Below, one piece after another: positions 36,050-53,242 of a DNA stretch of 64,000 nt. The translations under genes and the position numbers were made by a program. How positions within the stretch are numbered: position 1 is the stretch's first letter; each line of letters begins with the position of its first letter. A model generated the notes under the pieces. It was not told the origin of the DNA and made no database searches. It saw only the letters and a list, made by a program, of their open reading frames with translations. This DNA comes from a virus (Duplodnaviria > Caudoviricetes): IMG/VR virus record IMGVR_UViG_3300027286_000002. The stretch is one strand, 5' to 3'.

Positions 36050-36217
36050 ATGAATTGCACGATCTGTGGCAAAAAATACCACGACCTGCCTAATGCTATC
36101 AAATGGACTGAAAGAGATGGTGGTGCTTGTGAACCTTGTGTACATAGACTTAGAAAAACCTTTGGCAAATACCATGAACATTTCATTACACATGAAAATA
36201 AGAAAGCTAAAAAATGA
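36050..36217 (+). CDS. 55-aa CxxC...CxxC zinc-finger protein (absent from the ORF track)
   Basis: MNCTICGKKYHDLPNAIKWTERDGGACEPCVHRLRKTFGKYHEHFITHENKKAKK; AAGGAG SD; ATGA overlap with the Toprim gene. Confidence 0.65.
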   Translation: MNCTICGKKYHDLPNAIKWTERDGGACEPCVHRLRKTFGKYHEHFITHENKKAKK

Positions 36218-36891
36218 ATTGGCTAGATGATTTTATCTCAATCCTGCCTTTAAGCACAGAGCATCAAAACTACTTAAATAAAAGAGGTGTGGATCAAAAC
36301 ACTAATGTTAATTTTAAAACCTTTGATATGGTAAACTTTAACATTCCGTGTGATCGATTTAAAGCAACCTTTGGCAAAGCAGGTGAAAAATTAAAAGACT
36401 GTTTAATCATCCCTGCTACCTGTCCAAAAGGTGAAACCTATGGATTTGAAGCAAGGTCTTGGGATGCAAATGGTAATAAAAAAGTTTTTAAATATATGCT
36501 AGATCGCAGTCAATGGATACCTTCTTTACTTAATGGACATGAAGTAGCTGAATCATTATGGTCTAATGGTGATGTTTATTTTGTTGAAGGTGTCTTTGAT
36601 ATGGTTGCTCTTAAAAAGGTTATCTCATATCCCAATGCAGTAGGCTGTACTATGAGAGCAGGTGTAGATGAATTAACAATCTCTTTAATCCAAAGGTTTG
36701 CTAATAAGATCAGTACTATTTATATGGCATACGATAATGACAACACAGGTAGATTGAAATCTAGTGATGCTATTTATAAATTCAAAAAGTTAGGTATTCG
36801 TGCTGTGGAATGTAAATATCGTGGCAAAGATCCAAATGAATTATGGACGATACAAGGAGATGCAGGTCTAAAAAGATACTTCCTATTTTAA
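36214..36891 (+). CDS. DNA primase catalytic (Toprim) subunit lacking a Zn-binding domain
   Basis: YLNKRG, FEAR, YFVEGVFDMVAL, AYDNDNTG and KDPNELW are DnaG-type Toprim motifs. Confidence 0.85.
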   Translation: MNWLDDFISILPLSTEHQNYLNKRGVDQNTNVNFKTFDMVNFNIPCDRFKATFGKAGEKLKDCLIIPATCPKGETYGFEARSWDANGNKKVFKYMLDRSQWIPSLLNGHEVAESLWSNGDVYFVEGVFDMVALKKVISYPNAVGCTMRAGVDELTISLIQRFANKISTIYMAYDNDNTGRLKSSDAIYKFKKLGIRAVECKYRGKDPNELWTIQGDAGLKRYFLF

Positions 36892-37390: not shown

Positions 37391-38263
37391 ATGAGTAGAC
37401 AAGTTTTAATAAATAATGTAGTCAAAAGACATATCATTCGTTTAGCATCTATTGATGCTATTCGTGAAAGTAAAAAATATAAAACAGCTAGTGCTGGATA
37501 TGTTCGTTCTGAAATCACACCTGAAGTTTTAGAAGTTTTAGGCAATCATCTTTTCTATAAGACTGCTTTTATTAAAGACATTACTTCTTTATATGAAAAC
37601 ACTAAAAATTCTTTAATCCATATCTATGAAGAAATACAAAAGAAACCAAACAAATGGGAAGAAATTAAAAAAACCTTAAATCTCGATCCTAAAAATATTG
37701 GTTCTATGCTAATGGACTTGCCTAATTTTAAATCCAATTTTGGCAAGTGGTTAGAAAGTGTTATTAAAGATATACCTTTCTTAAACATCATGTATAAAGT
37801 GTCTAAATTAGAATATACACAAGCGAAACAATGGTTAGAGAACTTATATGCTAAACTACCTGCTAAAATCCAACAAGGTATAGATAAACTTAAAAATATG
37901 GCTACATCTGTTAAGGATTGGTTAGGAAAGATTTGGGATTTATTAAAAGAAAAAATTAAAAAGACAGATAACAAAGCAGTAAACATAGCTGTGTTTTTAG
38001 TCTATTTAGGTATTTCAAGAAAAATAGATGATGATACCTTTGCAAAGAAAAATCTAGTATCAGGACTAACAGGCAAATTAGATAGTGATCAGATACTAGA
38101 TGATTTACCTATGGATAAGTTAAGTGATTTCATATCTGCTCTTTTAGAGGATTTCATAGATATTGAAGATATTGTGAAATATAAGACTTTACCTTTTCAG
38201 ATTTATTTCCTTTATCAAGAAGGATATTTAGATGAAGAACTAAGAATATTGAAAGGACATTAG
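37391..38263 (+). CDS. Helical hypothetical protein, tandem paralog 1
   Basis: N-terminus IRLASIDAIRESKKYKTASAGYVRSEI aligns with paralogs 2 and 3. Confidence 0.7.
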   Translation: MSRQVLINNVVKRHIIRLASIDAIRESKKYKTASAGYVRSEITPEVLEVLGNHLFYKTAFIKDITSLYENTKNSLIHIYEEIQKKPNKWEEIKKTLNLDPKNIGSMLMDLPNFKSNFGKWLESVIKDIPFLNIMYKVSKLEYTQAKQWLENLYAKLPAKIQQGIDKLKNMATSVKDWLGKIWDLLKEKIKKTDNKAVNIAVFLVYLGISRKIDDDTFAKKNLVSGLTGKLDSDQILDDLPMDKLSDFISALLEDFIDIEDIVKYKTLPFQIYFLYQEGYLDEELRILKGH

Positions 38264-38265
38264 GA

Positions 38266-39141
38266 ATGAAAAGAGAAATTTTAATAAAACTTGCCTGTCA
38301 AATAGCAGTACATAAAAGCATTAAATATAAAACTGCATCACATTTAAGACAAGAACTTAATGCGACTACTTTAATACCTTTTGGCAATCAAATTGTTAAG
38401 TATGGTTCTATTAAAGGTCTTGTTGGTAAAATTAAACAAATCTATGAAGGTTTTCAAAAGATGCCAAACCTTTGGGAAAAGTTTAAAGAAAAATTAGGTA
38501 TCACTGCGACTAATGTTGTTTCTCTATATAAGCAACTTAATGAAAAGTTATCTGAATATCTTGAAGAAGGTAAAAAATGGATTGATGGACATAAACAGAA
38601 ACTAGCAAAAGAAAACAAGCTAATTTATTTTATGTTCTTATATGCAGAGAATGCACCTACAATAACAGGTTCTATAAAAACACTACTTGAAAAGATCAAT
38701 CCTGATAATTCATCTAAGCTGTCTAAAAAACTTAAACAATTATCAGATGGATTTGGAAACCTAAAAGACACAATAGATGAGTTCTTTAAAAAACATCCTG
38801 TTCTACATACAATCAGTATTCCTGCTAAAGCATATTTATTTTGGATCATTTGGGTCAATGTAGCTGAAGTCAGTTGGAAAATCACAGATATTATTAAAGG
38901 TTTTCTAGGTCAAATCTCATGGGGTGATCTTTTAGAATCACTACCTGAAAGTGGTTTAGGTTTTCTTATCCAAATCTTTATGCCTTTCATCCCAAGTGGC
39001 ATGGTTGCATCTTCTTTAAAGATAGGTTGGAATGCACTGATCATCCCTGCTATGGGTATACAATTTTATTATCTGTATCAACAACACTTAATAGATGAAC
39101 ATGGTAAACTGATTGAAAGTGAAGTAGAGAAACTAACATGA
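38266..39141 (+). CDS. Helical protein with hydrophobic C-terminal segments, tandem paralog 2
   Basis: IKLAC...KYKTAS; C-terminal YLFWIIWVNV, LGFLIQIFMPF and WNALIIPAMGIQFYYL. Confidence 0.75.
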   Translation: MKREILIKLACQIAVHKSIKYKTASHLRQELNATTLIPFGNQIVKYGSIKGLVGKIKQIYEGFQKMPNLWEKFKEKLGITATNVVSLYKQLNEKLSEYLEEGKKWIDGHKQKLAKENKLIYFMFLYAENAPTITGSIKTLLEKINPDNSSKLSKKLKQLSDGFGNLKDTIDEFFKKHPVLHTISIPAKAYLFWIIWVNVAEVSWKITDIIKGFLGQISWGDLLESLPESGLGFLIQIFMPFIPSGMVASSLKIGWNALIIPAMGIQFYYLYQQHLIDEHGKLIESEVEKLT

Positions 39142-40010
39142 AATATATAAAACTTGCCTGCATACAAGCAATAAAAGAAAGTAAAAAGATAAGGACAGCT
39201 AGTGCATATCAAGTTAGAAAAGAACTTAATGCGACTACCTTAATACCTTTTGCTAACCAAATTGTTAAACATGGTTCTCTTTTTGGACTAACAAGTAAAC
39301 TCAAAGATATTTATGAAAAGTACCAAGAGCAACCACAGATGTGGAATCTTTTTAAAAAGACTTTAGGTATTAATGCTATAGATAATGTTTCTCTATATCA
39401 CCAGCTTAATGATAAATTAGCAGGATATCTTGAACAAGGTAAAGAATGGGTCAATAAGCATAAACAACAGCTATCGGAAAAAAATAAGTATTTGTACTTT
39501 ATGTTCTTATATGCAGATAAAGCACCAACAGTAACAAGTTCAATAAACTATTTACTTGAAAGAGTAGATAGTGAAGAAAAGCAAATTATCATGCAGGCAT
39601 TTAAAAAATACAATGGTGGTTTTAATACCTTTGCAGAAATTATTGAAGATTTTTTTGATCATCATCCTGTTTTTGATGTCATGTCTATGCCTGCTAAAGC
39701 ATATGTATTTTGGTTAGTTTGGACAAATGTAACAGAAATAAGTTGGAAGGTTACAGATATCACTAAAGGATTTTTAGGTTTAATGTCATGGGGTGATCTT
39801 ATTCGTACTTTACCTGAAACAGGTTTAGGTTTACTTATTCAAGTATTTTGTCCTTTTATCCCAAGTGGAATGATTGCATCCTCTTTGAAGATAGGATGGA
39901 ATGCTTTAATAATACCTGCTATGGGTGCTCAATTTTATTATCTGTATCGCAGGCATTTAATAGATGAAAAAGGTAATCTAATTGAAAGTGAAGTTTTAAA
40001 ATTAGAATAG
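39138..40010 (+). CDS. Helical protein with hydrophobic C-terminal segments, tandem paralog 3
   Basis: Collinear with paralog 2 (ELNATTLIPF, MFLYA, IPSGMxASSLKIGWNALIIPAMG); ATGA overlap. Confidence 0.75.
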   Translation: MKYIKLACIQAIKESKKIRTASAYQVRKELNATTLIPFANQIVKHGSLFGLTSKLKDIYEKYQEQPQMWNLFKKTLGINAIDNVSLYHQLNDKLAGYLEQGKEWVNKHKQQLSEKNKYLYFMFLYADKAPTVTSSINYLLERVDSEEKQIIMQAFKKYNGGFNTFAEIIEDFFDHHPVFDVMSMPAKAYVFWLVWTNVTEISWKVTDITKGFLGLMSWGDLIRTLPETGLGLLIQVFCPFIPSGMIASSLKIGWNALIIPAMGAQFYYLYRRHLIDEKGNLIESEVLKLE

Positions 40011-40090: not shown

Positions 40091-41140
40091 ATGGAAGTCC
40101 ATTTTCATGTTAAACAAAACAGACAACATTTAAGATCATTGATCAGTTTGTCTAAAAAAAATAAAACATCTCGTGCAGTAAAATTTGAATGTTTTAATAA
40201 CACCATTAAAGCAACTGCTACAAATAATGATTTCATCTTGTCATGTATTTTAGACGGATCTATCTATGATGATGGTATTGTCTTTTTACCTACTGATGTT
40301 TTAGATAAAGCTATGAGATCATCTACTATCATTTTAAAAGATGATCGCATCTCTTATGGTGAAGAACCTGATGGTCTTTTCTCTCAAGGTGATATTGAAA
40401 CTGTTGAGTTTACTCAATTAGAATTTACTAGCAAAGAAGATGATTTTGAAACCTTTACAGGTAAAAAGATCAATCAAGCACAAGCGATTGAACTCGGATA
40501 TGCTCTTAAAAATGCTGTTCGTTTCTTATCCAAAGAAGAAGGAAAGAATAAAATCACAGGTGTTTATTATGATCCAACCAATCGTAATATCGTATCTACT
40601 GATGGTACTAAACTCTTTACTCAAAAGCTAACATTTGAATTTGTCAATCAAAAGGCTTTGATCCCTGCTGATGCTATTCCTATTCTTGCTGATAACCTTA
40701 TTAATGCTCATGCTAGTGTTAAGGATTGTCATTTGAATATCCAAAATGCGACTACAAGATATTCAATTTTGCTGGTGAATGAAAGTTTTCCAAACTACTT
40801 AAATGTCATGCCTAAAGATGCTGATCTTGAAAAGATCAATATCTCTGCTCGTGGCAAACAAGCATTATATGAAAGCGAAAAAGTGATTGATACACCTATT
40901 ATGAAAATAGATGTAGATGAAAGATCCACATTGAGATTGACCAATACAGAAAGTCAATATGTATGGCAAGAGAATGAATTTCAAGGTAAAGAACGATCTG
41001 TTAATTTCAATATTAACAACCTCACTCAAGTTCTAGCTTTAACTGAAAACATTTACTGCAATCCTAGAAACTTTTCATCTGCACCATTCTTATTTACAAA
41101 AGATAATGTTAAAATCTTATTGATGCCTACAAAAGTTTAA
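40091..41140 (+). CDS. dnaN: DNA polymerase III beta-clamp-like processivity factor
   Basis: 349 aa; VSTDGTKL (compare VATDGHRL), FPNYLNVMP (compare FPDY..V.P), VNFN...LTQVL and terminal LLMPT. Confidence 0.8.
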   Translation: MEVHFHVKQNRQHLRSLISLSKKNKTSRAVKFECFNNTIKATATNNDFILSCILDGSIYDDGIVFLPTDVLDKAMRSSTIILKDDRISYGEEPDGLFSQGDIETVEFTQLEFTSKEDDFETFTGKKINQAQAIELGYALKNAVRFLSKEEGKNKITGVYYDPTNRNIVSTDGTKLFTQKLTFEFVNQKALIPADAIPILADNLINAHASVKDCHLNIQNATTRYSILLVNESFPNYLNVMPKDADLEKINISARGKQALYESEKVIDTPIMKIDVDERSTLRLTNTESQYVWQENEFQGKERSVNFNINNLTQVLALTENIYCNPRNFSSAPFLFTKDNVKILLMPTKV

Positions 41141-41219: not shown

Positions 41220-41441
41220 ATGTCTGACAAAGTAAATGGTTATCAAATTCGTACAGATCTTTTACATTTAGCAACTCGTATTGTAGAAGAACAATCTCAA
41301 ACACAGCTTAAATTATTTGAAGCAAAATTACATATGGCAAAGTCTTTAGAAGATTTAGCCAAGCTAAATGCACCTGCCAATACAATTGAAGAAATTTTAT
41401 CTGTTGCTGATAAATTAAATCAATTCGTGCAAACTAAGTAG
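41220..41441 (+). CDS. Small helical phage protein (start revised)
   Basis: MSDKVNGYQIRTDLLHLA...EEILSVADKLNQFV resembles a common small myovirus hypothetical family (recognised from memory, not searched). Confidence 0.55.
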   Translation: MSDKVNGYQIRTDLLHLATRIVEEQSQTQLKLFEAKLHMAKSLEDLAKLNAPANTIEEILSVADKLNQFVQTK

Positions 41442-41706
41442 CATCATCAGGCAAACTTGTAGGATTAAGGATAGACTTATAATCTACTAAAATCCCATCA
41501 TACATAGGAATCCTGCGACCATCTTCTTGAAATCTTAAAGCAAATGCTTTGTGAATCTTAAAAATATCATCACTTGAATATCCATCTTCTGTAAGCATAT
41601 TGATAAAAACTTGAGTGCCTGCATATTTAGCTTGCACAATTAAATCTTCATCTGAAATTTGTGATACATACAAAATCCATTCTTTTAGTGTCTTTGGATC
41701 TTCCAT
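41434..41706 (-). CDS. Hypothetical protein
   Basis: 90-aa ORF immediately downstream of the 1948-aa gene. Confidence 0.6.
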   Translation of the reverse strand: MEDPKTLKEWILYVSQISDEDLIVQAKYAGTQVFINMLTEDGYSSDDIFKIHKAFALRFQEDGRRIPMYDGILVDYKSILNPTSLPDDAT

Positions 41707-41708
41707 TT

Positions 41709-44700
41709 TTATTTATTGCCTTTCTTGCTTAGATCAAAAGGATTTAAAACAGGTTTCAAATCACCTCTCAATACTGCAATTTCTTTTTGTGTATTTTCTA
41801 AAGTTTTTTCATTTTCTAGTTCTTTAGTAATAGTAGTAAAAAGAGCATCGTCTTGTACTGCTAACATTCCCATTAAACTTTCAGATGATACTTCTTGATC
41901 TTCATCTGCATACTTTTTAGATGCTAATTTCATAGATGAAAGTTCAGGATTATTTTCTTTAAACATTTTTAAACTATCTAGAATAGCTACTCTTTCATTC
42001 ATATTAGCTTTGACAAGAACTTCTTTTAAGTCTTTCATATAAGTTTTTACAAGAGTAGATTTTTCTGATTTTGTTAACTGTGTTAAGATTTGATCTCTAA
42101 AGAACAAAAACCAACATTCAGTACTTTTAGTATCAAATGGATCTGTAGGTGCTGATAAATATTCTTCTAAAGTTTCAAAGCCTGCCTCTTTAACTTTTGC
42201 ATCTACATATTTAGTTAAATGCTTATATGACTTAGAATTGTCATCTAAAGATAAAGTAAGTTTTGTAGTACTACCAAAGAATTTCCATAGTTCTTCACCT
42301 GCTTTAACAACATTACCTTCAGAATCTGTAAAAGTGATTGCATAAAGATCTAAAAGACTATAAGTTTGTTGCTTGTAAACATCTGTCATTTCGGAAACAA
42401 GATAATAACATTTAGCTAGTTTTAAAAGCCACCAACCTGCACCATCTCTAAGGAAAGTAACAATTTGATGTTTTTGTTGAGAATTAAGTCCTTTAGTATC
42501 AGGATTTTTTAGTTTTGAAATTAAATCCAAAACACTTTCTTTATCTACTTTTACATCTACTGCTTTTGTTTTTAAACTTGCATTGTGTTCTTCGACTTTT
42601 TCAATATAGTTTTTCAATTCTTCCTGAAAAACCAATTGTGATTGTGCATCATTTCCTGCTGGTAGTGGTGAAACTAGATTAGTTGGATTTAAGAATTTTA
42701 ATACCAAATCAAAATTCTGTTGTAAAGGAGGATACTGTAGTGTAAGTATTAGCACAGTAGCATCATATCCAAACTTGGGCCAGATATAATAACCAATCAT
42801 AGGATTATGTCCTTGACCTTTTTTACCAAGTCCTGTTTCAGGATCAAAGCTATTAAAAGAACCACCACCATCTGTTACAAGTTCTTTTTTACCTGCCTTT
42901 TTACAAGCTACTAATTGAGAAAACAATGCTTTGTTTCCAATACTCTTTGGGGCACAAGTTGTTGTAAAAAACTCACAATTTTTTACTGAATCAGAATTGA
43001 CTGCTCTAATTTGTGATGCAATCCAATCGCCTTTTAACCTAATATGCTTTACATCAGGTACAGAAACACTACTTGTAATTTCAGCAGGTGTTACATTCAA
43101 AACACCTGATATACCTGAAACATCTAACTTTTCTTTCAATTCAGGTGTCAATACAGTAGTGCCTAATTGTTGTAGTATAGTTTTAATTGATGGATGATTA
43201 AAACGATTTGGATCTAAAACTGTATGCTTAACAGGATCTTCCTTCTTATTCTTAAAGTATTCATCAATTTCATTTGATGCTTCTCTTGTAGGCAAAATCG
43301 CTCTTGTAAATTCTTCTAAGTTTGGTGTTGTCATTTTATCACTTACAACACCATGTTCAATCGCACTGTAGTTTTCAGATAACTTGATAGCACCACTTTT
43401 TTTAATAATGTCATTAAAGAACTTCTGATCTGTTTCATGTACTAGACCTCTCAATTCATCTATTGACACTGTTGGTTTGCCTTTTTCATCATTAGGTGCT
43501 ACTGCATCTACCATCACTTCAAGAACTTCATTCTCCTGTCCTTGTCTAAATGCTCTTGCTGTTCTTTGCTTAATTTCTTCACTATCCCAACCATCTCTAT
43601 CTAAATGCACAACAGCTTTAAATTTTTGTAAATTAAATCCTCTTGCATAAGATGAATTACATACCATTGTAACTACTTGATCATTTTCTGCAATAAAGTT
43701 CTTAACAATCTTAATTGCCCATGTCATATCTACAGGCATATTTTTTACAGAAGGTTTAGCTACTGCACCTGTCTTTGACATTCTTTCTCTTTCAATCGCT
43801 TCAATTTGTTCTTCTGTTAAACGATTGATCTTAAAATTCTCTACATTGGTTTTTTTAGTAGCACGACCTTTCTTTAAAGGAACACCTGCCTGATAAAACA
43901 CAATCATATTAGATAAACAAAGAGCATGAATTTTTGTACGATGTCTCATAGAAATAGAAATGACTGTTTGTTTTGCTACATCATTATCTTCTGTGAAATA
44001 AATTGTTCGTTTAGATTCCTGTAAGAATTTAGTAGCTAAAGCTGTTGCTTGTTCTACCTTTGGATTTACAAAAGTATAAGTTTTTGGCTCAATGCCTTTC
44101 ATCTTATTATATTTTGCCATTGCTTTATGTGGATTTAAACTAAACAAGTGTAATAAAGCAATCTTATCCTTTAAATTACCAACTGCAATATCTTTTTCTT
44201 TTTGCAAGGTTACTGAAATATCTTCAGCATTTTGTGTCAATAAAGCAGAATACCTGTCTTTCATTTCTTTAAGCTGGTTTTTAATGCCACTTGCTACTTC
44301 TACATATGCCTTACCTACTTCAGGTGGCATATTTACAGCTGTGTTTAATTTCACTAAAGGTTTAAGTTGTTTTTTACCTACTGCCTCGTAATCCACATCC
44401 ATCTTATCTGCAAAGTAAGCATTTTGCTTTAACCAAATATTAAATTGATGTCTTGCTTCAGGTTTAATACCTACAAACTTGCCACCAATATTGATTGCAT
44501 ATTTATCTGCAAATGCTTTTTCTTTTGCAGGTTCAATAGGATTACCTGTAGATAAAGATACAAATCTAAATAAATCCATAGGTGATGTTTCTAATGCAGA
44601 TGCAGTTAGTAAAATCTTTCTTTTATGTTTTACTCCACTAATCGCTTGTGCTTTCTTTCCTGTTAAGGCTTCATTCACTTCATCAAAAATCATGCAGTAA

Positions 44701-47555
44701 TATTCATTTTCAAAATCAAACTTGCTTTCGTACATCTTAACAAATTCGGTATATCCAATTTCTTTTGCACGACTATCAATCTTTTTTTCTACATTCCCAG
44801 CTAATCCATCTGCTACATCTTCTGTTAAAAACTTTCTCACTTCACTTAAAAAGTTTCCTCTTAAAGCATCAGGACCCACAATTAAAAACTTTGCATCCTT
44901 TTCTTTTTTTGATCCCAATTGCATTGCAGTCACACCTACTAAGGTTTTACCTACACCTGTGTCTAATGCCATCACACCTTTTAAATCATTTGCATCTAAC
45001 CAAGCTAATGCCTCAACTTGCTTATTGTTAAATACAATGTTATCTTTAAATCCACCTATTGATACAGGTTTATATTTTTCTAAATTCTGTGCATTTAATG
45101 CTTTGTCTTTCTGTAAGACAATACCATAATACTTTTCTAATTCTTCATGTGCTTTTCTAGTCATCAAACAAGATCCTAAAGAATCTTTGATTGACTCATA
45201 ATCATCACCATCAAAATAATAAGTTACTCTTGTACCACTAATATTTTCAATTTCTTCAACTGATGCTCTTGTCTTCTTTAAATTCTTTAAAGCACCTCTT
45301 TCACCTTTAAAAGCATCACCTTTTGGTAATGCAATTACAAACCTGCCTTTAAACCATGTGATATATGGTTCTTCCAAAACATTATAATTGATCTTAATAT
45401 CACCACTCTCTACTTTAATACCTTCATAGATATTAATAATTTTACCATTTGCTCCAACAGAATAACATTTATTTTCGCTTGTTAATCTTCCTGTTGCATT
45501 TGCTAAATCTTCCACAGAGAAACCTTTCATTGGTCCCCTTGTGATAATATCTTTAGTAACACCTTTAATAGTAGTAGTCTTTACTTTGACCCAATGTGCA
45601 AATCTTAAAGGATTTGATGCCTTTGGTGTTGTATCATCAGATAATTCTACTTCTCTTTCTTCGCCCGGAAGTGCATCTACTACTGAATCAGGTAAATGAT
45701 CTATCACAATAGGTGGAATATTCATATCCAAATCTTCTGTTAATGGAATAGGATTTCCAATCTCATCAAATTTAAGTGTACCATCTTTTTTGGTTTCATA
45801 TTTAGGTACAGGCTCACCATTTTTAAAAATTACATTTCCTAATTCATCTTTTTCATAAATCACTCTTCTCTTGATATGCTTAAAGATTAATTGCTTTTGT
45901 TGTACTTCTTCACCATTTTGGTTTGTTACTGTAATCGTTCTGATTTCAGGAAAAGCATCTCTTAAAACCTTTGACTTAATTTGGACATCAAATTTCTTTT
46001 GTTGATAAACTTCATATGCAGATAAACCATTTTCGGATTCAATCACACCTAGCTTTTCACTATAAATGGTATGTGCTTTATCTAAAAAGTTCTTTTGTTC
46101 TTCTTTGATAGCTACCTTTAAAGTTTTACCTTTGACAATAGAATTTGGTTTTTCAAGTTCTTTAAGCTGTCCATATAATTGCTTTACTGCTCGCTTATTG
46201 ATTTGCATATCTGAATCAATAATTTCTTTTTCCATATTATATTCATCTAAAACATATTTAAATGAAGGCACATCCACTAAAGACACTAATTTTTCAAACA
46301 TCTCTTTATATGGATCTTGATCAATATCCCAACCTTGACTCAGAAAATAGTTTTGGCAAATTTGAGATAGCTTAAGATTACTATCAATCTTAAATTGCTT
46401 AAATTTTGTGATCAATGGTTTTAAAGATAGACCAATTGGTACAATATTGTTTTTTGCTATCATATATTCCATAAGATTAGCAAAGGTCAAATCCATATCT
46501 GTTTGAGATAAAATCTTTTTAATTACATCTTCTGTTGTACCTACGACTGATGTACTTAATAATTTGGCACTTAACTTCTTTTTAGCTAATTGATCCATTT
46601 TTACTAAGTAATCTTCTTCTTTGACTTCCGACATCGTATCAATGTCTAAATCAACAGGCAAATTCATTGTCTGTAAAAAGTCTAGTTTTCTTTTTTTAAT
46701 AACACCTGCAATCGTAGGCATATTTTTTGGATCATTTAAATATAAATCAAGACGATCACCATCTTCTAATTTAACTTCTGTAAATGCTCCGATTCCTGAT
46801 AACTTAGTCTTTAATTGAGCTTTTTCATACTCAACATATTTCTTCTTAATCGTATTTGCATTTTCTGCAATCACAACAGCAGGTATTGCTCCTGATACTT
46901 CTTTAAACACATCGTATTTTACACCTGTGCTTGTTACTTTTTGTGTGATCTCATATTGCAAACCTTTTGCTTTGCAAATTAAAGCAATCCATCCTGATAA
47001 TGACTTCAAACTTTCTTTGAAAAATGCTTGCTTACCTAAACGATTTGCCACATCAAAAGCACCTGCCATTAAAACAACTTTAGCTTTCTTAAAGACTTCT
47101 TCTTGTGAATTACTTGTTGGATTTCCTTGTCTCACAATGAACTCTAAATATCCTTCCCATACCTTTTGTAAATTCGTTTCAATGAAAGCATCTACTTTTT
47201 GAATATTTACTTTCAAGTCAATCCAAAGGTTTTTCAATTCCTCATCTTGTTCTTTTTCTCTGAAAAATCCCAAATAATACAGATATGCTTTTTCCATATC
47301 TTCATCTAAAGACCACTTAACTAAAGACTTATCTTTCGCTACCTGTGATACTCGATCATTAATATAATCGATTAAGTAATCTTCAAACTCTACCAATTGC
47401 TGGTAGTGATTAAAAACATAATTGCCATTTCCTTCGATCTTGCCTCTAGTAGTATCTCTACTAGACAATTGTGGAACTTTAAAAGCTAATAGAAAATTAG
47501 ATTTAAATGGATTGGCACTGCGATTTGGATTGTTTATCAATTTCACAACAGGCAT
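41709..47555 (-). CDS. Giant SNF2-family helicase fused to a GNAT-like domain (1948 aa)
   Basis: SF2 motifs ALDTGVGKT, IFDEVN, LLTAS, YARGFNLQ and QRTARAFRQGQ; downstream ELVT...IGYYIWPKFGYD resembles GNAT motif B. Confidence 0.75.
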   Translation of the reverse strand: MPVVKLINNPNRSANPFKSNFLLAFKVPQLSSRDTTRGKIEGNGNYVFNHYQQLVEFEDYLIDYINDRVSQVAKDKSLVKWSLDEDMEKAYLYYLGFFREKEQDEELKNLWIDLKVNIQKVDAFIETNLQKVWEGYLEFIVRQGNPTSNSQEEVFKKAKVVLMAGAFDVANRLGKQAFFKESLKSLSGWIALICKAKGLQYEITQKVTSTGVKYDVFKEVSGAIPAVVIAENANTIKKKYVEYEKAQLKTKLSGIGAFTEVKLEDGDRLDLYLNDPKNMPTIAGVIKKRKLDFLQTMNLPVDLDIDTMSEVKEEDYLVKMDQLAKKKLSAKLLSTSVVGTTEDVIKKILSQTDMDLTFANLMEYMIAKNNIVPIGLSLKPLITKFKQFKIDSNLKLSQICQNYFLSQGWDIDQDPYKEMFEKLVSLVDVPSFKYVLDEYNMEKEIIDSDMQINKRAVKQLYGQLKELEKPNSIVKGKTLKVAIKEEQKNFLDKAHTIYSEKLGVIESENGLSAYEVYQQKKFDVQIKSKVLRDAFPEIRTITVTNQNGEEVQQKQLIFKHIKRRVIYEKDELGNVIFKNGEPVPKYETKKDGTLKFDEIGNPIPLTEDLDMNIPPIVIDHLPDSVVDALPGEEREVELSDDTTPKASNPLRFAHWVKVKTTTIKGVTKDIITRGPMKGFSVEDLANATGRLTSENKCYSVGANGKIINIYEGIKVESGDIKINYNVLEEPYITWFKGRFVIALPKGDAFKGERGALKNLKKTRASVEEIENISGTRVTYYFDGDDYESIKDSLGSCLMTRKAHEELEKYYGIVLQKDKALNAQNLEKYKPVSIGGFKDNIVFNNKQVEALAWLDANDLKGVMALDTGVGKTLVGVTAMQLGSKKEKDAKFLIVGPDALRGNFLSEVRKFLTEDVADGLAGNVEKKIDSRAKEIGYTEFVKMYESKFDFENEYYCMIFDEVNEALTGKKAQAISGVKHKRKILLTASALETSPMDLFRFVSLSTGNPIEPAKEKAFADKYAINIGGKFVGIKPEARHQFNIWLKQNAYFADKMDVDYEAVGKKQLKPLVKLNTAVNMPPEVGKAYVEVASGIKNQLKEMKDRYSALLTQNAEDISVTLQKEKDIAVGNLKDKIALLHLFSLNPHKAMAKYNKMKGIEPKTYTFVNPKVEQATALATKFLQESKRTIYFTEDNDVAKQTVISISMRHRTKIHALCLSNMIVFYQAGVPLKKGRATKKTNVENFKINRLTEEQIEAIERERMSKTGAVAKPSVKNMPVDMTWAIKIVKNFIAENDQVVTMVCNSSYARGFNLQKFKAVVHLDRDGWDSEEIKQRTARAFRQGQENEVLEVMVDAVAPNDEKGKPTVSIDELRGLVHETDQKFFNDIIKKSGAIKLSENYSAIEHGVVSDKMTTPNLEEFTRAILPTREASNEIDEYFKNKKEDPVKHTVLDPNRFNHPSIKTILQQLGTTVLTPELKEKLDVSGISGVLNVTPAEITSSVSVPDVKHIRLKGDWIASQIRAVNSDSVKNCEFFTTTCAPKSIGNKALFSQLVACKKAGKKELVTDGGGSFNSFDPETGLGKKGQGHNPMIGYYIWPKFGYDATVLILTLQYPPLQQNFDLVLKFLNPTNLVSPLPAGNDAQSQLVFQEELKNYIEKVEEHNASLKTKAVDVKVDKESVLDLISKLKNPDTKGLNSQQKHQIVTFLRDGAGWWLLKLAKCYYLVSEMTDVYKQQTYSLLDLYAITFTDSEGNVVKAGEELWKFFGSTTKLTLSLDDNSKSYKHLTKYVDAKVKEAGFETLEEYLSAPTDPFDTKSTECWFLFFRDQILTQLTKSEKSTLVKTYMKDLKEVLVKANMNERVAILDSLKMFKENNPELSSMKLASKKYADEDQEVSSESLMGMLAVQDDALFTTITKELENEKTLENTQKEIAVLRGDLKPVLNPFDLSKKGNK

Positions 47556-47624
47556 TTTGCTTATCCTTTGTTTTAAGTGAAAATATGCTCTTTTATAATT
47601 ATGCTTGTAAATATAGATTTAATA

Positions 47625-48005
47625 TTAAATTTTCTCAATCTCATTCGTAATAGATAACTTGTCTGTACGATCCATCATAAACCATTCCACACTCACAGGT
47701 TCAAATTGTGCAAACTTTGCAAACACTGTTTCTTTGTCAAATTCCTTGCATGAATATACATCCAATTGAATTAAGCCGGGCACTGCTTCATCCCACACAT
47801 GAATCGCAATATGTGATGTTTCAATAATAGTCACTGCTGTTAAACCTCTATTGCCTGCCTTGTCAAGATACACAGCATGGGGTCCACTTAAAATCTTCAT
47901 GTCAATCGCTTGGATCAAATCCTTTAACCATGATTCAATCACATCTGTTGCCATAGGTGGCTTATTTACATAAGCACGGATTACAATATGTTGGTGTTGT
48001 AGCAT
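47625..48005 (-). CDS. speD: Pyruvoyl-dependent S-adenosylmethionine decarboxylase-like proenzyme
   Basis: GLTAVTIIETSHIAIHVWDE...LDVYSC matches the class 1b SpeD/SpeH autocleavage signature (x-SH-I-x-I-H-x-W). Confidence 0.85.
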   Translation of the reverse strand: MLQHQHIVIRAYVNKPPMATDVIESWLKDLIQAIDMKILSGPHAVYLDKAGNRGLTAVTIIETSHIAIHVWDEAVPGLIQLDVYSCKEFDKETVFAKFAQFEPVSVEWFMMDRTDKLSITNEIEKI

Positions 48006-48513: not shown

Positions 48514-48882
48514 TTAATTATATCCTTTTTTCTTATCTTCTATTGCCTTTACTGACTGCTCTACCATGTCTTGATCAAATATATCATGATCTGTGATCTG
48601 CTCTAATACCTTTTTACTTGCACATAAAATATAAGATAAGATTTTGGTTTGACCTTCTTCATTATTCACTATTAACTTATGATGTGGCAAAACATGAAAT
48701 ATATTTAAAAGCTGTCCTATCTTAATCCATACATTTAATAATTCCTGTTCACCTTCAAAATCATTTTGTCCAAAGTAATATGTCTGTGCTAACTGTGATA
48801 TTAAAAACTCAAATCCTTCTTGATTAAATACATCACTCGGTAGTAGTTCTTTATCTTCTTCATTGTTGTCTGTCATTTTCAA
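48514..48882 (-). CDS. Hypothetical protein
   Basis: 122-aa ORF in the replication operon. Confidence 0.6.
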   Translation of the reverse strand: MKMTDNNEEDKELLPSDVFNQEGFEFLISQLAQTYYFGQNDFEGEQELLNVWIKIGQLLNIFHVLPHHKLIVNNEEGQTKILSYILCASKKVLEQITDHDIFDQDMVEQSVKAIEDKKKGYN

Positions 48883-49384
48883 GTTTCCTGTATATCTTTA
48901 TCCATAGTTCAGGTTCTGTCTTTTTGGCAAACAATAAAAAATCTACTGCTTCCCATAACTTTAAACATTCCTTTAAAGATAATACTTTTTCTTTTGTAAT
49001 CCTTGACAACTTATTTATTGTTTTCGCCTGCCAATCAATTTCACTATCTTCTATATCCACATCTTTAAACACATCAGGTTTCTCATATTCCTGCCATTCG
49101 CTTAAACCATATTTCTTTTCTATCATCCTGCAAGCTACATTAAATTCCACACCTTCTTTTTCCATTACTGTTGATACTACATCTCTTACCTTGCCACAAG
49201 CAAAGCAATACCATGTCTTTGTATTATGGTAATATCTTGCACTAGGTTTTGTATCTACACCACTACCATGTAAATCACATGAAAATTGTTGATCAGATCC
49301 ATTCGTTCTTACATTATATCCATAAGCACCTAACACTTGATCTAAAGGTACTTGGTTTTTAATACGATCTGATCTTTTACTCAT
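48860..49384 (-). CDS. Stand-alone CHC2 zinc-finger (primase Zn-binding domain) protein
   Basis: IKNQVPLDQVL...SCDLH...KPSARYY...WYCFACG...DVV..VMEKEGVEF..A is the DnaG CHC2 pattern. Confidence 0.85.
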   Translation of the reverse strand: MSKRSDRIKNQVPLDQVLGAYGYNVRTNGSDQQFSCDLHGSGVDTKPSARYYHNTKTWYCFACGKVRDVVSTVMEKEGVEFNVACRMIEKKYGLSEWQEYEKPDVFKDVDIEDSEIDWQAKTINKLSRITKEKVLSLKECLKLWEAVDFLLFAKKTEPELWIKIYRKLENDRQQ

Positions 49385-50910: not shown

Positions 50911-51591
50911 TTAAATTTTAAGTGTTGGTACTTTTTTGTTTTCAACTTCTTGTTGCTCTACAAGTCTTATATTATTCCATCCTAATAATACATCTTCTAC
51001 ACCTCTTGACCATGCAATATGTCCTTCACATAATGGTCTGTTTGGATCAACTACAATCCAAGTAGGTTTATTAAGATGTTGTCTTAATTCTATTGTTTCT
51101 ATTAAGACTTCAGGCATAGCTGAATTTCTTGCCATCTTAACACCTAATCTCACTATTAAAAGACTTGGTGCTTCAGCCATATCTTCTAAACCACGAACTG
51201 TAATTTCTCTAGTGAAATCAGGATCAATAATATCACTTTGTGCTAATGAGATATTAGAAAGCCATGCACTCATTAAATTTGCATCAGATACAACTTTAAT
51301 AAAAAAGCTAGGATTCTTTTCTAAAAAGATTGCTCCTTTCAGATGAGAACATAATTCTGTTTTCTCTGCATGAACAATAATGTTTTCTTTTAGTTTACCT
51401 TTTAAAGGTGTAGCTTTTTTCGCTGGAAATTGACTTAAACCTGTCCAAGCTCTTTCACATTGATTTTTCAAATGTTCTTTTAATACACATGAACATTGAG
51501 CCATGATAGGTTCATTTCTATAATATTGACCACTAGGTACTAAACCTATGCCACCACATTTTTCACAAACTTTAGCCATTGTCTTTTGCAT
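50911..51591 (-). CDS. Putative helicase loader (DnaC/DnaI-like, Zn finger plus degenerate AAA domain)
   Basis: CEKCGGIG...QCSC Zn finger; LLIVRLG...LIETIELR...KPTWI resembles DnaC; adjacent to the helicase; no intact Walker A. An alternative ATG lies at 51579. Confidence 0.5.
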   Translation of the reverse strand: MQKTMAKVCEKCGGIGLVPSGQYYRNEPIMAQCSCVLKEHLKNQCERAWTGLSQFPAKKATPLKGKLKENIIVHAEKTELCSHLKGAIFLEKNPSFFIKVVSDANLMSAWLSNISLAQSDIIDPDFTREITVRGLEDMAEAPSLLIVRLGVKMARNSAMPEVLIETIELRQHLNKPTWIVVDPNRPLCEGHIAWSRGVEDVLLGWNNIRLVEQQEVENKKVPTLKI

Positions 51592-53170
51592 CCTCTAGTA
51601 AGCCATTGAAAATATCTTTGAGTTCTGTATCAGATACTCCTTCTATCTTATCTGATTCTTCATCGTTTTTCAGTCTTTTACCTAAAACATTTTCAATTAA
51701 ATCCATTTTACTTGCTAAGGCTTTCATTACACGATCATCAATAGTCTTTGGACAAACTAAATGATAACAAAATACACGATCATGAATACTACCGATACGA
51801 ATCATTCTACCAATGATTTGAAGATAATCACCTGCACTCCATGGGGAGTCATAAAAGATAACTGCTTTAGCTAACTGTAAATTAATACCTTCTGCCGCCG
51901 CCATTGTAATCAAGACGACCTTTACATCAGAATTTTCATCTTGAAATGCCTCTTGTGATTTCTTTCTCTCATCATCCTTTTCACCACCTGTAATTCTTAC
52001 ACTCTTAATTTTCTTTGCTGTTAGTTCTCTTTCCAAAACATCTATCATCTTCCTAAACCTTGAAAAGATAATTACCTTTTCTCCATCTAGTTCATCTTCT
52101 AGTAACTCAAATAAAGCATCCATTTTGCCACTATCACCTGTCGCATCTACAAGTTCTAAATGGTTTACAATCTGTTGACAATACATAACTGCTGTGAGTT
52201 TTGTTACTTCCTTTTGTTTGATCTCACCTGATTCAGCATCATATTTTTCTAATAGACCACTTAATGCTTCTTTATATTTTGATCTTTGTTGATCAGATAA
52301 TTCACATTCAATTCTCTTAGTAGTCAATGGTGGCAATTCACTCGCTACTTCATGTTTTGGTCTACCTACAAAGAAAGGATCAATCTTTTCTTTAAATGCT
52401 TCAATATCAGATTTCCTATGACCTACTACAAACTTAATTCTCTTTCTACCTATTTGCTTATCTACACATACACAGTAATTAGACATGAATACATTCTTGC
52501 TAGGCATAAGTCCGGGGACAGTTACTTTATAGATTGCCCATGCTTCCATAAGTCTATTTTTAATAATAGTAGCTGATAAAGACCATACCTTTTCTGCACT
52601 ACCAGATAAATGAGAACAAACTTGATGGATTTGAGAAGTATCGTTTTTAAAAGCAGTTGCCTCGTCAAAGACCATAACATTACCTGTGATAGGTTGAATA
52701 ATATCAAAATCAATCACACCTGTTCTATAACCTAAAATAAGAACTTTAGTAGTAGTACAGGCAAAGTAAGCATCATAAACCTTTTGTCTTTTCTTTTTAT
52801 CTCCACTGACAACAAAACAAGAGATACTACCATTGGTAAATTTCTCAAATTCACTTGCCCATTGGTTTAGAGCAGATTTAGTAGTCATAATGACAGCAGG
52901 CATATCAGGTCTTTTTTCCCATACATAGCATAGAGATGCTATGGTTTGAATCGTTTTACCTAACCCCGTGTCATCGCCAAGTACAAATCGTGGCATTGCA
53001 AGTAAATGCAGAATGCCTTGTAATTGATAGTTTCTTAATGTTAAAGGTTTGCCATTTGCCAAATGAGTTCTCAAGAATGAGTTTGCAGGCATTTTGATTT
53101 CTTGTTTAACACGAACTTCTCTTAATTTTTCAATAGTAGCAAGTAGCTTTGGATCTTTTAAATAATTCAT
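51572..53170 (-). CDS. SNF2-family helicase
   Basis: LRNYQ, LGDDTGLGKT, VFDEA, LSAT, AAAEGINLQ and QIIGRMIRIG; start revised to ATG 53170. Confidence 0.9.
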   Translation of the reverse strand: MNYLKDPKLLATIEKLREVRVKQEIKMPANSFLRTHLANGKPLTLRNYQLQGILHLLAMPRFVLGDDTGLGKTIQTIASLCYVWEKRPDMPAVIMTTKSALNQWASEFEKFTNGSISCFVVSGDKKKRQKVYDAYFACTTTKVLILGYRTGVIDFDIIQPITGNVMVFDEATAFKNDTSQIHQVCSHLSGSAEKVWSLSATIIKNRLMEAWAIYKVTVPGLMPSKNVFMSNYCVCVDKQIGRKRIKFVVGHRKSDIEAFKEKIDPFFVGRPKHEVASELPPLTTKRIECELSDQQRSKYKEALSGLLEKYDAESGEIKQKEVTKLTAVMYCQQIVNHLELVDATGDSGKMDALFELLEDELDGEKVIIFSRFRKMIDVLERELTAKKIKSVRITGGEKDDERKKSQEAFQDENSDVKVVLITMAAAEGINLQLAKAVIFYDSPWSAGDYLQIIGRMIRIGSIHDRVFCYHLVCPKTIDDRVMKALASKMDLIENVLGKRLKNDEESDKIEGVSDTELKDIFNGLLEDAKDNG

Positions 53171-53242
53171 TTTTAAGTAGTCATCTTTCAAAGTGATAAT
53201 GAATGATCTACTTATAAGATATTTATCTATGCTTTACATCTA

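Follow-up and report, generated by a model that had tools for sequence, protein, structure and literature searches.

Within a single polypeptide, a giant phage protein covalently joins an SNF2 core to a divergent, insert-split GNAT-fold domain. The gene occupies positions 41709..47555 on the minus strand of a 64,000-nucleotide (nt) stretch, here called the window, of a 195,689-bp IMG/VR virus record (IMGVR_UViG_3300027286_000002) estimated to be 63% complete. All positions given here refer to the window. The protein may be a multi-domain conflict protein of the polyvalent type, a reading that we regard as evenly poised. By analogy with the capsid-carried head proteins that bear the domain in smaller phages, it would probably serve as a host-takeover or anti-defence effector.

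The initial annotation placed a 1,948-amino-acid (aa) open reading frame (ORF) at these positions, and the ORF listing and translation bear this out. The giant protein (P0001) is encoded by one unbroken frame. Its start codon is ATG, with AAAGGA 8 nt upstream as a plausible ribosome-binding site, and from Met1 onwards the N-terminus (MPVVKL...) is conserved in every relative. Among 5.8 billion proteins searched, 14 full-length relatives were found, metagenomic only, of 1,714-2,194 aa and 99% to 30% identity. Thirteen matches have E=0, with identity down to 39%, and two relatives of 1,714 aa share 30-31% identity at E ~1e-135. The window is AT-rich (~31-32% GC). With 14 full-length homologues, a 5.8-kb open frame in DNA of 31% GC is no product of chance. 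A near-identical copy lies on a 350-kb contig and another relative on a 316-kb contig, which points to a jumbo phage. The source is an uncultured giant freshwater phage. A tblastn search of 50,697 GenBank phage records gave no match to the giant protein, and no cultured relative was found. The protein likewise matched no PDB sequence by phmmer and no PHROGs family, the DarB-like family included. Pfam and PHROGs detected no MuF, portal or methyltransferase domain in it, and no methylase, peptidase or LPD domain was detectable. An ESM Atlas feature search gave weak leads only.

The middle of the protein (aa 836-1400; 43356..45050, minus strand) is an SNF2-family SF2 ATPase/translocase core with a long insert between its lobes. 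The complete SF2/SNF2 motif set that the initial annotation had read there is confirmed: motif I is DTGVGKT (865-871), motif II FDEVN (957-961), motif III LLTAS (982-986) and motif VI QRTARAFRQGQ (from 1330). All four are intact in the giant protein and do not vary among 18 family members, close and distant. The only Pfam matches of the giant protein are the two SF2 ATPase halves, ResIII at 843-985 (31.2 bits, cut-off 22.5) and Helicase_C at 1282-1339 (22.4 bits, just below the 23.5 cut-off). SNF2-rel_dom is matched in 9 of the 14 homologues. When a family profile of the motor region was compared with the PDB, the best match was SsoRad54-like 1z63 (E 4.6e-15), with the Zorya ZorD ATPase 8qy7 at E 1.9e-11 and INO80, ISWI and CHD1L at E 1e-8 to 1e-7. 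The invariant motifs, with SNF2 enzymes as the best solved relatives, indicate that the motor is an SNF2-family translocase with an intact ATP site. Judged by sequence, the giant protein has an intact SNF2-family double-stranded-DNA-translocase core.

A conserved helical linker (aa 1401-1474; 43134..43355, minus strand), seen in the alignment and in the model secondary structure, leads from the motor into the GNAT-like domain. The domain comes in two halves. The first (aa 1475-1606; 42738..43133, minus strand) is defined by an independent family profile (5e-20), by GNAT fold matches and by motif register. The second (aa 1722-1826; 42078..42392, minus strand) carries GEELWKFFG, LSLDD and NSKSYK..LTKYV and is found by an independent profile at 6e-13. 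Between them lies a helical insertion (aa 1607-1721; 42393..42737, minus strand), placed by alignments, domain coordinates and model helices. The insert measures ~115 aa in the giant protein and ~300 aa in most close relatives, and is a 20-40-aa linker in compact members of the wider family. A helical tail (aa 1827-1948; 41712..42077, minus strand) closes the protein, with a disordered linker containing KLAS (1876-1879) and a conserved end motif, LRGDLKPVLNPF. The initial annotation had drawn attention to ELVTDGGG followed by a motif resembling G-Y-x-x-W-x-K/R-x-G-F/Y. Both strings are present, ELVTDGGG at 1558-1565 and IGYYIWPKFGYD at 1587-1598, and the pattern proves to be the hallmark of a real family. 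Besides this hallmark, the first half holds the invariant Arg (QIRAV), an Asn (VKNCEF), the loop equivalent APKSIGN, Q1547 and G1555. Invariant positions of the domain in the giant protein include R1517, N1526, Y1589, W1592 and W1757.

Domain parsing with AlphaFold, as the initial annotation had proposed, was run on aa 1400-1948. The AlphaFold2 model, built on a 14-sequence alignment, has a mean pLDDT of 79 and a pTM of 0.70. In an exhaustive structural comparison (VIA, 48,161 PDB chains) the top three matches are all GNATs, with 124-138 residues aligned at a root-mean-square deviation of 3.9-4.4. These are 3tcv (Z 6.2, 138 residues), 1yre (Z 6.0) and 2z0z (Z 6.0); by the comparison tool's own warning, a structural Z below 8 is common. 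All matches with more than ~95 aligned residues are GNATs, and the others cover only a short helical repeat (model residues 406-484). Among re-examined Foldseek candidates, ~25 of the top 50 are GNATs (NatD, RimI, GCN5, PaiA, Naa50) over model residues ~52-375, and the match to 6ao7 has a probability of 0.75. The ESM Atlas ranking lists two unannotated bacterial clusters (TM 0.61-0.69 by target), one unannotated viral cluster and then, in positions 4-10, seven GNAT clusters (TM by target 0.30-0.53, ~0.5 in four of the seven). The GNAT structural alignments cover both halves (model residues 73 to ~390) and bridge the helical segment at model residues 209-324; the fold therefore comprises aa 1475-1606 and 1722-1826 with a ~115-aa insert. 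No other fold matched the beta core of the C-terminal region in the structural comparison. On this model, the C-terminal region very likely has a GNAT-like fold (a mixed beta-sheet with the beta4-alpha3-beta5-alpha4 unit), which the comparison supports without proving, given the modest scores and the insert retained in the model. Fold and motif register thus uphold the GNAT-like domain of the initial annotation, with the qualification that curated GNAT models miss it and that its loop reads S-x-G. No Pfam acetyltransferase model matched the giant protein or its 13 homologues.

The domain recurs far beyond the giant proteins. A C-terminal profile searched against 1.84 billion representative proteins gave 432 matches at E <=1e-3, 73 of them at E <=1e-10. 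In most members the halves are contiguous, with 20-40 residues between them, and form a compact domain of ~190 aa. Across 48 diverse members, the invariant residues are an Arg, the G, W and G of G-Y-Y-x-W-P-K-x-G-Y-D, the W and G of G-x-x-W-W-x-x-N-G, and a Tyr. An Asn, the second Tyr of G-Y, the A-P-x-G-x-G-T loop (both Gly), a Gln, a Gly and an F-D-L strand are kept in at least 90%. A profile built from compact members only, with the giant protein's own family excluded, recovers the giant protein at 9e-34 and no other ORF of the genome. Of the stretches picked up in scans for the hallmark pattern, 96 of 99 and 106 of 112 were confirmed as relatives. When the compact-family profile was aligned by hhalign with 22 canonical GNATs from three bacterial genomes (P = 0.0014, probability 17.7%), G-x-G fell on the GNAT pyrophosphate loop and GYYVWPKxGY on motif B.

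Existing models pass over most of this family. Pfam Acetyltransf_1 is passed by 1 of 52 wider relatives (21.3 vs 20.7 bits). Ten solo domain proteins had no match in PHROGs or NCBIfam, and three compact members had none by tblastn in the 50,697 GenBank phages. The compact-domain profile found nothing significant among PDB sequences, where two GNATs appeared at E ~1 over the motif A region; a zearalenone hydrolase (E 0.06) was set aside as a non-significant chance match. By these profile searches, the 432 cluster representatives form a large family, and apart from the one Acetyltransf_1 match the members scanned go unrecognised by Pfam, PHROGs and NCBIfam. Its other architectures include solo proteins of 130-330 aa and proteins with 2-4 tandem copies of the domain.

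We sampled 80 GTDB and 80 IMG/VR loci from the hallmark-motif scan, called ORFs crudely and clustered the neighbours; 142 loci were counted. The commonest neighbour cluster is the large terminase (TerL, confirmed), found within 8 kb in 38 of the 142 loci, in most cases 1-4 genes upstream of the domain gene and on its strand. A confirmed SPP1-type portal cluster occurs in 5 loci, directly upstream of the domain gene in 2, and confirmed capsid clusters lie a few genes downstream. Five of ten tested domain bearers have an N-terminal MuF, minor-head or head-morphogenesis region, and one of the ten has a portal region. In phages and prophages of 30-60 kb the domain is mostly found at the C-terminus of MuF/SPP1-gp7-type minor head proteins within terminase-portal-capsid modules. 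This C-terminal position on head proteins is where capsid-carried, co-injected effector domains have been described (polyvalent-protein passages of PMC5512222; PMC5576092). The MuF part of one bearer has matches in 655 GenBank phages, none of which reaches into the GNAT-like part. The best BFVD match of the giant-protein model is a 'phage head morphogenesis domain' protein (E 4.5e-5). In one IMG/VR phage (L126:6054-8579), a portal protein (PHROG 146, aa 39-483) is fused directly to the GNAT-like domain (aa 648-839).

Where the domain closes a gene, the next ORF on that strand is small (<150 aa) 64% of the time, vs 32% for the other genes of these loci (Fisher p = 1e-7); because ORF calling was crude, this enrichment is only suggestive. 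Small downstream ORFs have been reported as characteristic of MuF toxins (PMC5576092), whose toxin domains include no GNAT or acetyltransferase by a text search of that paper. The giant gene has such a neighbour of its own. An acidic 90-aa gene (pI 4.4; 41434..41706, minus strand) starts 2 nt past its stop codon. A homologue of 84-90 aa stands directly after the giant gene in all five contexts examined, with 52-72% identity, and a 94-aa gene also follows the distant relative P0024. The small protein is better conserved than the giant one: where identity of the giant protein falls to 30%, that of the small one is still 53%. The small protein is likely a partner of the giant protein. A complex prediction with the C-terminal 549 aa scored 0.00, which counts neither way. 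Outside the jumbo-phage group, no homologue of the 90-aa protein was found beside other GNAT-like genes. In relatives with tandem giant genes, the small conserved gene is placed after the middle or the first copy.

We propose that the SNF2 motor would carry or anchor the giant protein on DNA, where the GNAT-like domain would acylate a DNA-associated target. A host protein (nucleoid, RNA polymerase or a defence component) is the likelier target than a nucleobase. The protein would act at or soon after DNA entry, either arriving in the capsid, the probable route of the domain's relatives, or being synthesised with the early replication genes. The acidic 90-aa protein would be its inhibitor, an immunity-like factor or a chaperone. 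These parts differ in strength. From the structural model, it is a toss-up whether the GNAT-like domain is catalytically active as an acyltransferase. Packaging of the giant protein in the virion, suggested by analogy, is conceivable, and we lean slightly against it. A more specific picture is rather doubtful when taken as a whole: a capsid-delivered, DNA-tracking acyltransferase would act on host nucleoid or defence proteins or on DNA in cis, would be curbed by the 90-aa protein, and would carry a domain from an unannotated family of MuF- or portal-borne GNAT-fold effectors with immunity-like small genes. A specifically anti-restriction role, again argued from analogy, seems quite unlikely.

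Several observations weigh against the conflict-protein reading. The structural scores for the GNAT fold are modest (Z ~6), and the hhalign profile-profile probability against canonical GNATs is only 17.7%. The giant protein retains all wider-family invariants, with the first Gly of its cofactor loop replaced by Ser (P-K-S-I-G, S-x-G for G-x-G), and its close relatives share this change. The most distant members, P0014 and P0015, have lost the loop glycine and most of the GYYxWPK motif. No packaging-linked domain (MuF or portal) and no PHROG match is found in the giant protein. Finally, the giant gene is fixed at the end of a conserved replication block, not in a head module, a position more in keeping with early or middle expression than with a late virion protein. 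Four related phages share one order: an SNF2 gene (~530 aa), a 226-aa gene, DnaB, a primase Zn-ribbon gene, two small genes, an AdoMet-decarboxylase-like gene and the giant gene. The giant gene, in one to three copies, is followed by the small gene and then by a convergent 349-aa gene and a Toprim gene. A scan for sigma-70-type promoters and terminators around the giant gene gave fewer sites than in shuffles and is uninformative on timing.

A different explanation is that the giant protein is an unpackaged intracellular remodeller, coupled to replication, recombination or transcription, which is made with the replisome genes and acylates a host protein. It would translocate on phage or host DNA like RapA or like SNF2 enzymes that replace UvsW. 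A model for its acylation is phiKMV Rac, whose acetylation target is the alpha subunit of RNA polymerase. Synteny with DnaB, both primase halves, a second SNF2 and a clamp-loader-like ATPase is conserved, the giant gene lies downstream of the replication block on the same strand, and the missing packaging-related domain fits as well. Jumbo phages have also been reported to encode their own SNF2 helicases for recombination or transcription and GNATs for host takeover (PMC7824862). However, a conventional SNF2 is already encoded in the same block. The initial annotation had noted this gene at 51572..53170; the gene is there, spanning 51572..53191 (539 aa, TTG start; SNF2-rel_dom 3.6e-38, Helicase_C 2.1e-24), and it touches the DarB-like PHROG at E 9.5e-4. 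The GNAT-like family is, moreover, tied to head proteins elsewhere. The giant gene also behaves like a conflict gene, with tandem paralogues and fast divergence (30-55% identity vs 52-72% for the small neighbour). It is triplicated in tandem on the 316-kb contig (L002:3643-22372; 2,090, 2,141 and 1,871 aa), and a second locus (L198:8001-20732) holds two tandem paralogues of 2,157 and 1,976 aa. Such arrays look like an arms race. We consider the remodeller somewhat improbable.

A further possibility is that the GNAT-like domain is non-catalytic and serves as a binding or assembly module for the portal, the capsid interior or DNA, which would make the giant protein a structural or motor protein. 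The S-x-G loop, the degenerate motifs of P0014 and P0015 and the failure of Pfam GNAT models to detect the giant protein would all fit such a module. So would the 2-4 tandem domain copies in some proteins, an arrangement that binding modules show more often. MuF proteins can carry inactive effector-type domains, for example the inactive PBECR domain of Mu gp30 (polyvalent-protein passages of PMC5512222). Against this, the wider family keeps an active-site-like set of polar and aromatic residues (R, G, W, G, W, G and Y invariant in 48 members), which the giant protein retains with the exception of one Gly. The enrichment of small downstream ORFs also suggests an activity that needs neutralisation. 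A non-catalytic domain is unlikely in our view.

The initial annotation had gone further and proposed an injected translocase with an acetyltransferase, analogous to P1 DarB. DarB is a virion-carried N6-adenine methyltransferase and SNF2-like helicase that acts against restriction in cis. The idea of a DarB-style injected protector is supported by analogy, because relatives of the domain are carried on head proteins, the paralogues form arrays and the overall architecture resembles that of polyvalent proteins. What speaks for it is the presence of the domain on MuF and portal proteins elsewhere; the missing methyltransferase, MuF and portal domains and the lack of a DarB-like PHROG match do not support it, and the replication-block position points the other way. 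In its strict form, with the motor on incoming phage DNA and a nucleobase acylation like that of Mom blocking restriction, it is very improbable: a modifying enzyme joined to SNF2 is a parallel architecture (polyvalent-protein passages of PMC5512222) and base-acylating GNAT-superfamily enzymes exist, namely Mom and a GNAT coupled to an ABC ATPase in jumbo phages (PMC7824862), but no specific sequence or fold link to Mom was found, the best structural neighbours are protein or small-molecule N-acetyltransferases (NatD, RimI, PaiA), and on the MuF proteins of small phages the domain comes without a motor, which means that its function does not inherently involve DNA tracking.

The initial annotation left ~850 N-terminal residues unassigned, and this stands: the first ~835 aa have no Pfam or PHROG assignment. 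An AlphaFold2 model of the N-terminal 840 aa is helical; its structural matches are all generic helical bundles, most of them designed (Z <=8.1), and Foldseek gave no match. The region divides in two. Residues 1-530 (45966..47555, minus strand) are mostly helical, and their local hidden Markov model (HMM) matches are confined to the close phage group and its tandem paralogues; the N-terminus MPVVKLxNNPNRSxNPFKG is strictly conserved. The N2 domain (aa 531-835; 45051..45965, minus strand) is beta-rich by model secondary structure and, in local HMM searches, conserved in the wider SNF2 and GNAT-like superfamily. The distant giants P0021 to P0042 have an identical order of N2, SNF2 and GNAT-like domains. 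A piece of N2 of ~60 aa (aa ~642-700) recurs just upstream of the GNAT-like domain in helicase-free proteins of ~800 aa, nine of which had no match in PHROGs. N2 as a second, degenerate GNAT-like copy was rejected (hhalign probability 0.3%).

Outside the motor, the best-conserved short stretches are the two termini, NNPNRSxNPFKG at the N-terminus and LRGDLKPVSNPF at the C-terminus, with NPF in both. Even tandem paralogues keep these NPF-type motifs (47505-47555, aa 1-17; 41712-41770, aa 1929-1948, LKPVSNPF; minus strand), and the C-terminal ILNPxLP of the small neighbour protein is reminiscent of them. An NPF-type terminal motif as a genome-wide tag was rejected, since it occurs only at both giant-protein ends and at one other C-terminus, and a k-mer search for shared terminal tags gave nothing striking. 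KLAS lies ~70 residues from the C-terminus in a predicted disordered linker (pLDDT <50 at 1878-1892), and all 14 family members have a basic-x-Ala motif at this position. This positional conservation and the disordered setting are suggestive. As a cleavage tag, [KR]-x-A-S was rejected, one KLAS being about what chance would give (0.99 expected). Because one such motif per protein is chance, KLAS is only a lead for a removable C-terminal peptide.

Other genes around the giant gene complete the block. Directly upstream, in all related phages, stands an S-adenosylmethionine-decarboxylase-like gene (126 aa; 47625-48005, minus strand; Pfam AdoMet_dc 7e-13), separated from it in the window by 69 bp (47556-47624). 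The primase is apparently split between a DnaG-type Zn-ribbon gene (48860-49384, minus strand) and a Toprim-domain gene (36214-36891, plus strand) 12 kb apart, and relatives are alike in this. The 349-aa gene (40091-41140, plus strand) converges with the giant-gene operon, and its position is conserved in relatives. It has weak PHROG matches to a DNA polymerase processivity factor (1.8e-9) and a RusA-like resolvase (2e-5). Three tandem paralogue-sized genes (290, 291 and 290 aa; 37391-40010, plus strand) have no PHROG match.

Two further settings of the domain are of note. On a 196-kb contig (L195:2315-22568), at least six GNAT-like-domain genes lie within 20 kb, beside RNR, a RecD-like helicase and a DNA methylase. 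This array, another sign of an arms race, has at least five tandem paralogues of ~800 aa and one 1,395-aa protein with N2, a partial helicase and the GNAT-like domain. Seven GTDB loci (L018, L024, L036, L043, L047, L053, L069) carry solo or short domain genes in cultured bacteria, probably on prophages. Cultured bearers are Conchiformibius kuhniae, Cupriavidus basilensis, Aquitalea palustris, Derxia gummosa, Massilia spp., Roseateles and Diaphorobacter.

Enzymes known to be carried or made by phages at DNA entry include ADP-ribosyltransferases (T4 Alt), methyltransferase-helicases (P1 DarB) and virion RNA polymerases. If our proposal is right, the giant protein would add an acyl-transfer arm to this set. 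The more useful by-product of the analysis is the MuF-associated, unannotated GNAT-like domain family. It would be a sizeable effector domain family, missed by annotation pipelines, with at least 432 representative clusters and with copies in prophages of cultured bacteria of Burkholderiales/Neisseriales type. The copies in cultured hosts (Cupriavidus, Aquitalea, Massilia, Conchiformibius) make the activity of the domain and the role of the small downstream genes directly testable.

The two domains can be set beside their known counterparts. With GNATs such as RimI, NatD/Naa40, PaiA and phiKMV Rac, the family shares the core beta-sheet and helix topology, with motifs A and B in register, and its consensus A-P-x-G-x-G-T corresponds to the pyrophosphate-binding loop. 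Unlike ordinary GNATs, it has invariants of its own (GYYxWPKxGYD, GxxWWxxNG and FDL), a sequence similarity below Pfam detection and a C-terminal extension, to which the giant protein adds its helical insert of ~115 aa. Prokaryotic SNF2 ATPases (SsoRad54-like 1z63, ZorD 8qy7, RapA) share motifs I, II, III and VI with the motor and include its best solved profile matches. They lack the ~835 N-terminal and ~550 C-terminal flanking residues of the giant protein, and their motif II reads DEAH or DEGH, whereas that of the giant protein reads DEVN.

Like the giant protein, P1 DarB is a very large phage protein in which an SNF2-family motor is combined with the fold of a group-transfer enzyme. The methyltransferase domain is DarB's alone, none being detected in the giant protein, and the chemistry is methyl transfer there and predicted acyl transfer here. 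Since it has no methyltransferase, the giant protein is not a member of the DarB family.

Polyvalent proteins carrying SNF2 and GNAT domains are a described concept (Iyer, Burroughs, Anand, de Souza and Aravind 2017, PMC5512222). Measured against the passages of that paper on polyvalent proteins, the giant protein is similar in its very large size and in combining a SWI2/SNF2-type ATPase with a domain of protein-modifying type (GNAT). Over its 1,948 aa, it has these two effector-type domains plus two unassigned conserved regions. It is also similar in that its GNAT-like domain occurs solo or fused to MuF and portal proteins, and in paralogue expansion and rapid divergence. For polyvalent proteins, transfer with the DNA is indicated by a location next to packaging or late genes, or by a MuF or portal fusion; the giant gene sits amid replication genes, and only the other domain bearers fit. 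An SNF2 and GNAT fusion was not found in them. The paper names two GNAT families, as far as those passages go, and the present family may or may not equal either.

MuF polymorphic toxins (Jamet et al. 2017, PMC5576092) have an N-terminal MuF domain (SPP1 gp7 / Mu gp30), which was not detected in the giant protein, and belong to temperate 40-kb phages, whereas the giant gene belongs to a virulent-looking jumbo phage. Relatives of its GNAT-like domain are, like these toxins, C-terminal extensions of MuF-type minor head proteins. A small downstream ORF is likewise common to both, and the giant gene has its own conserved small downstream gene.

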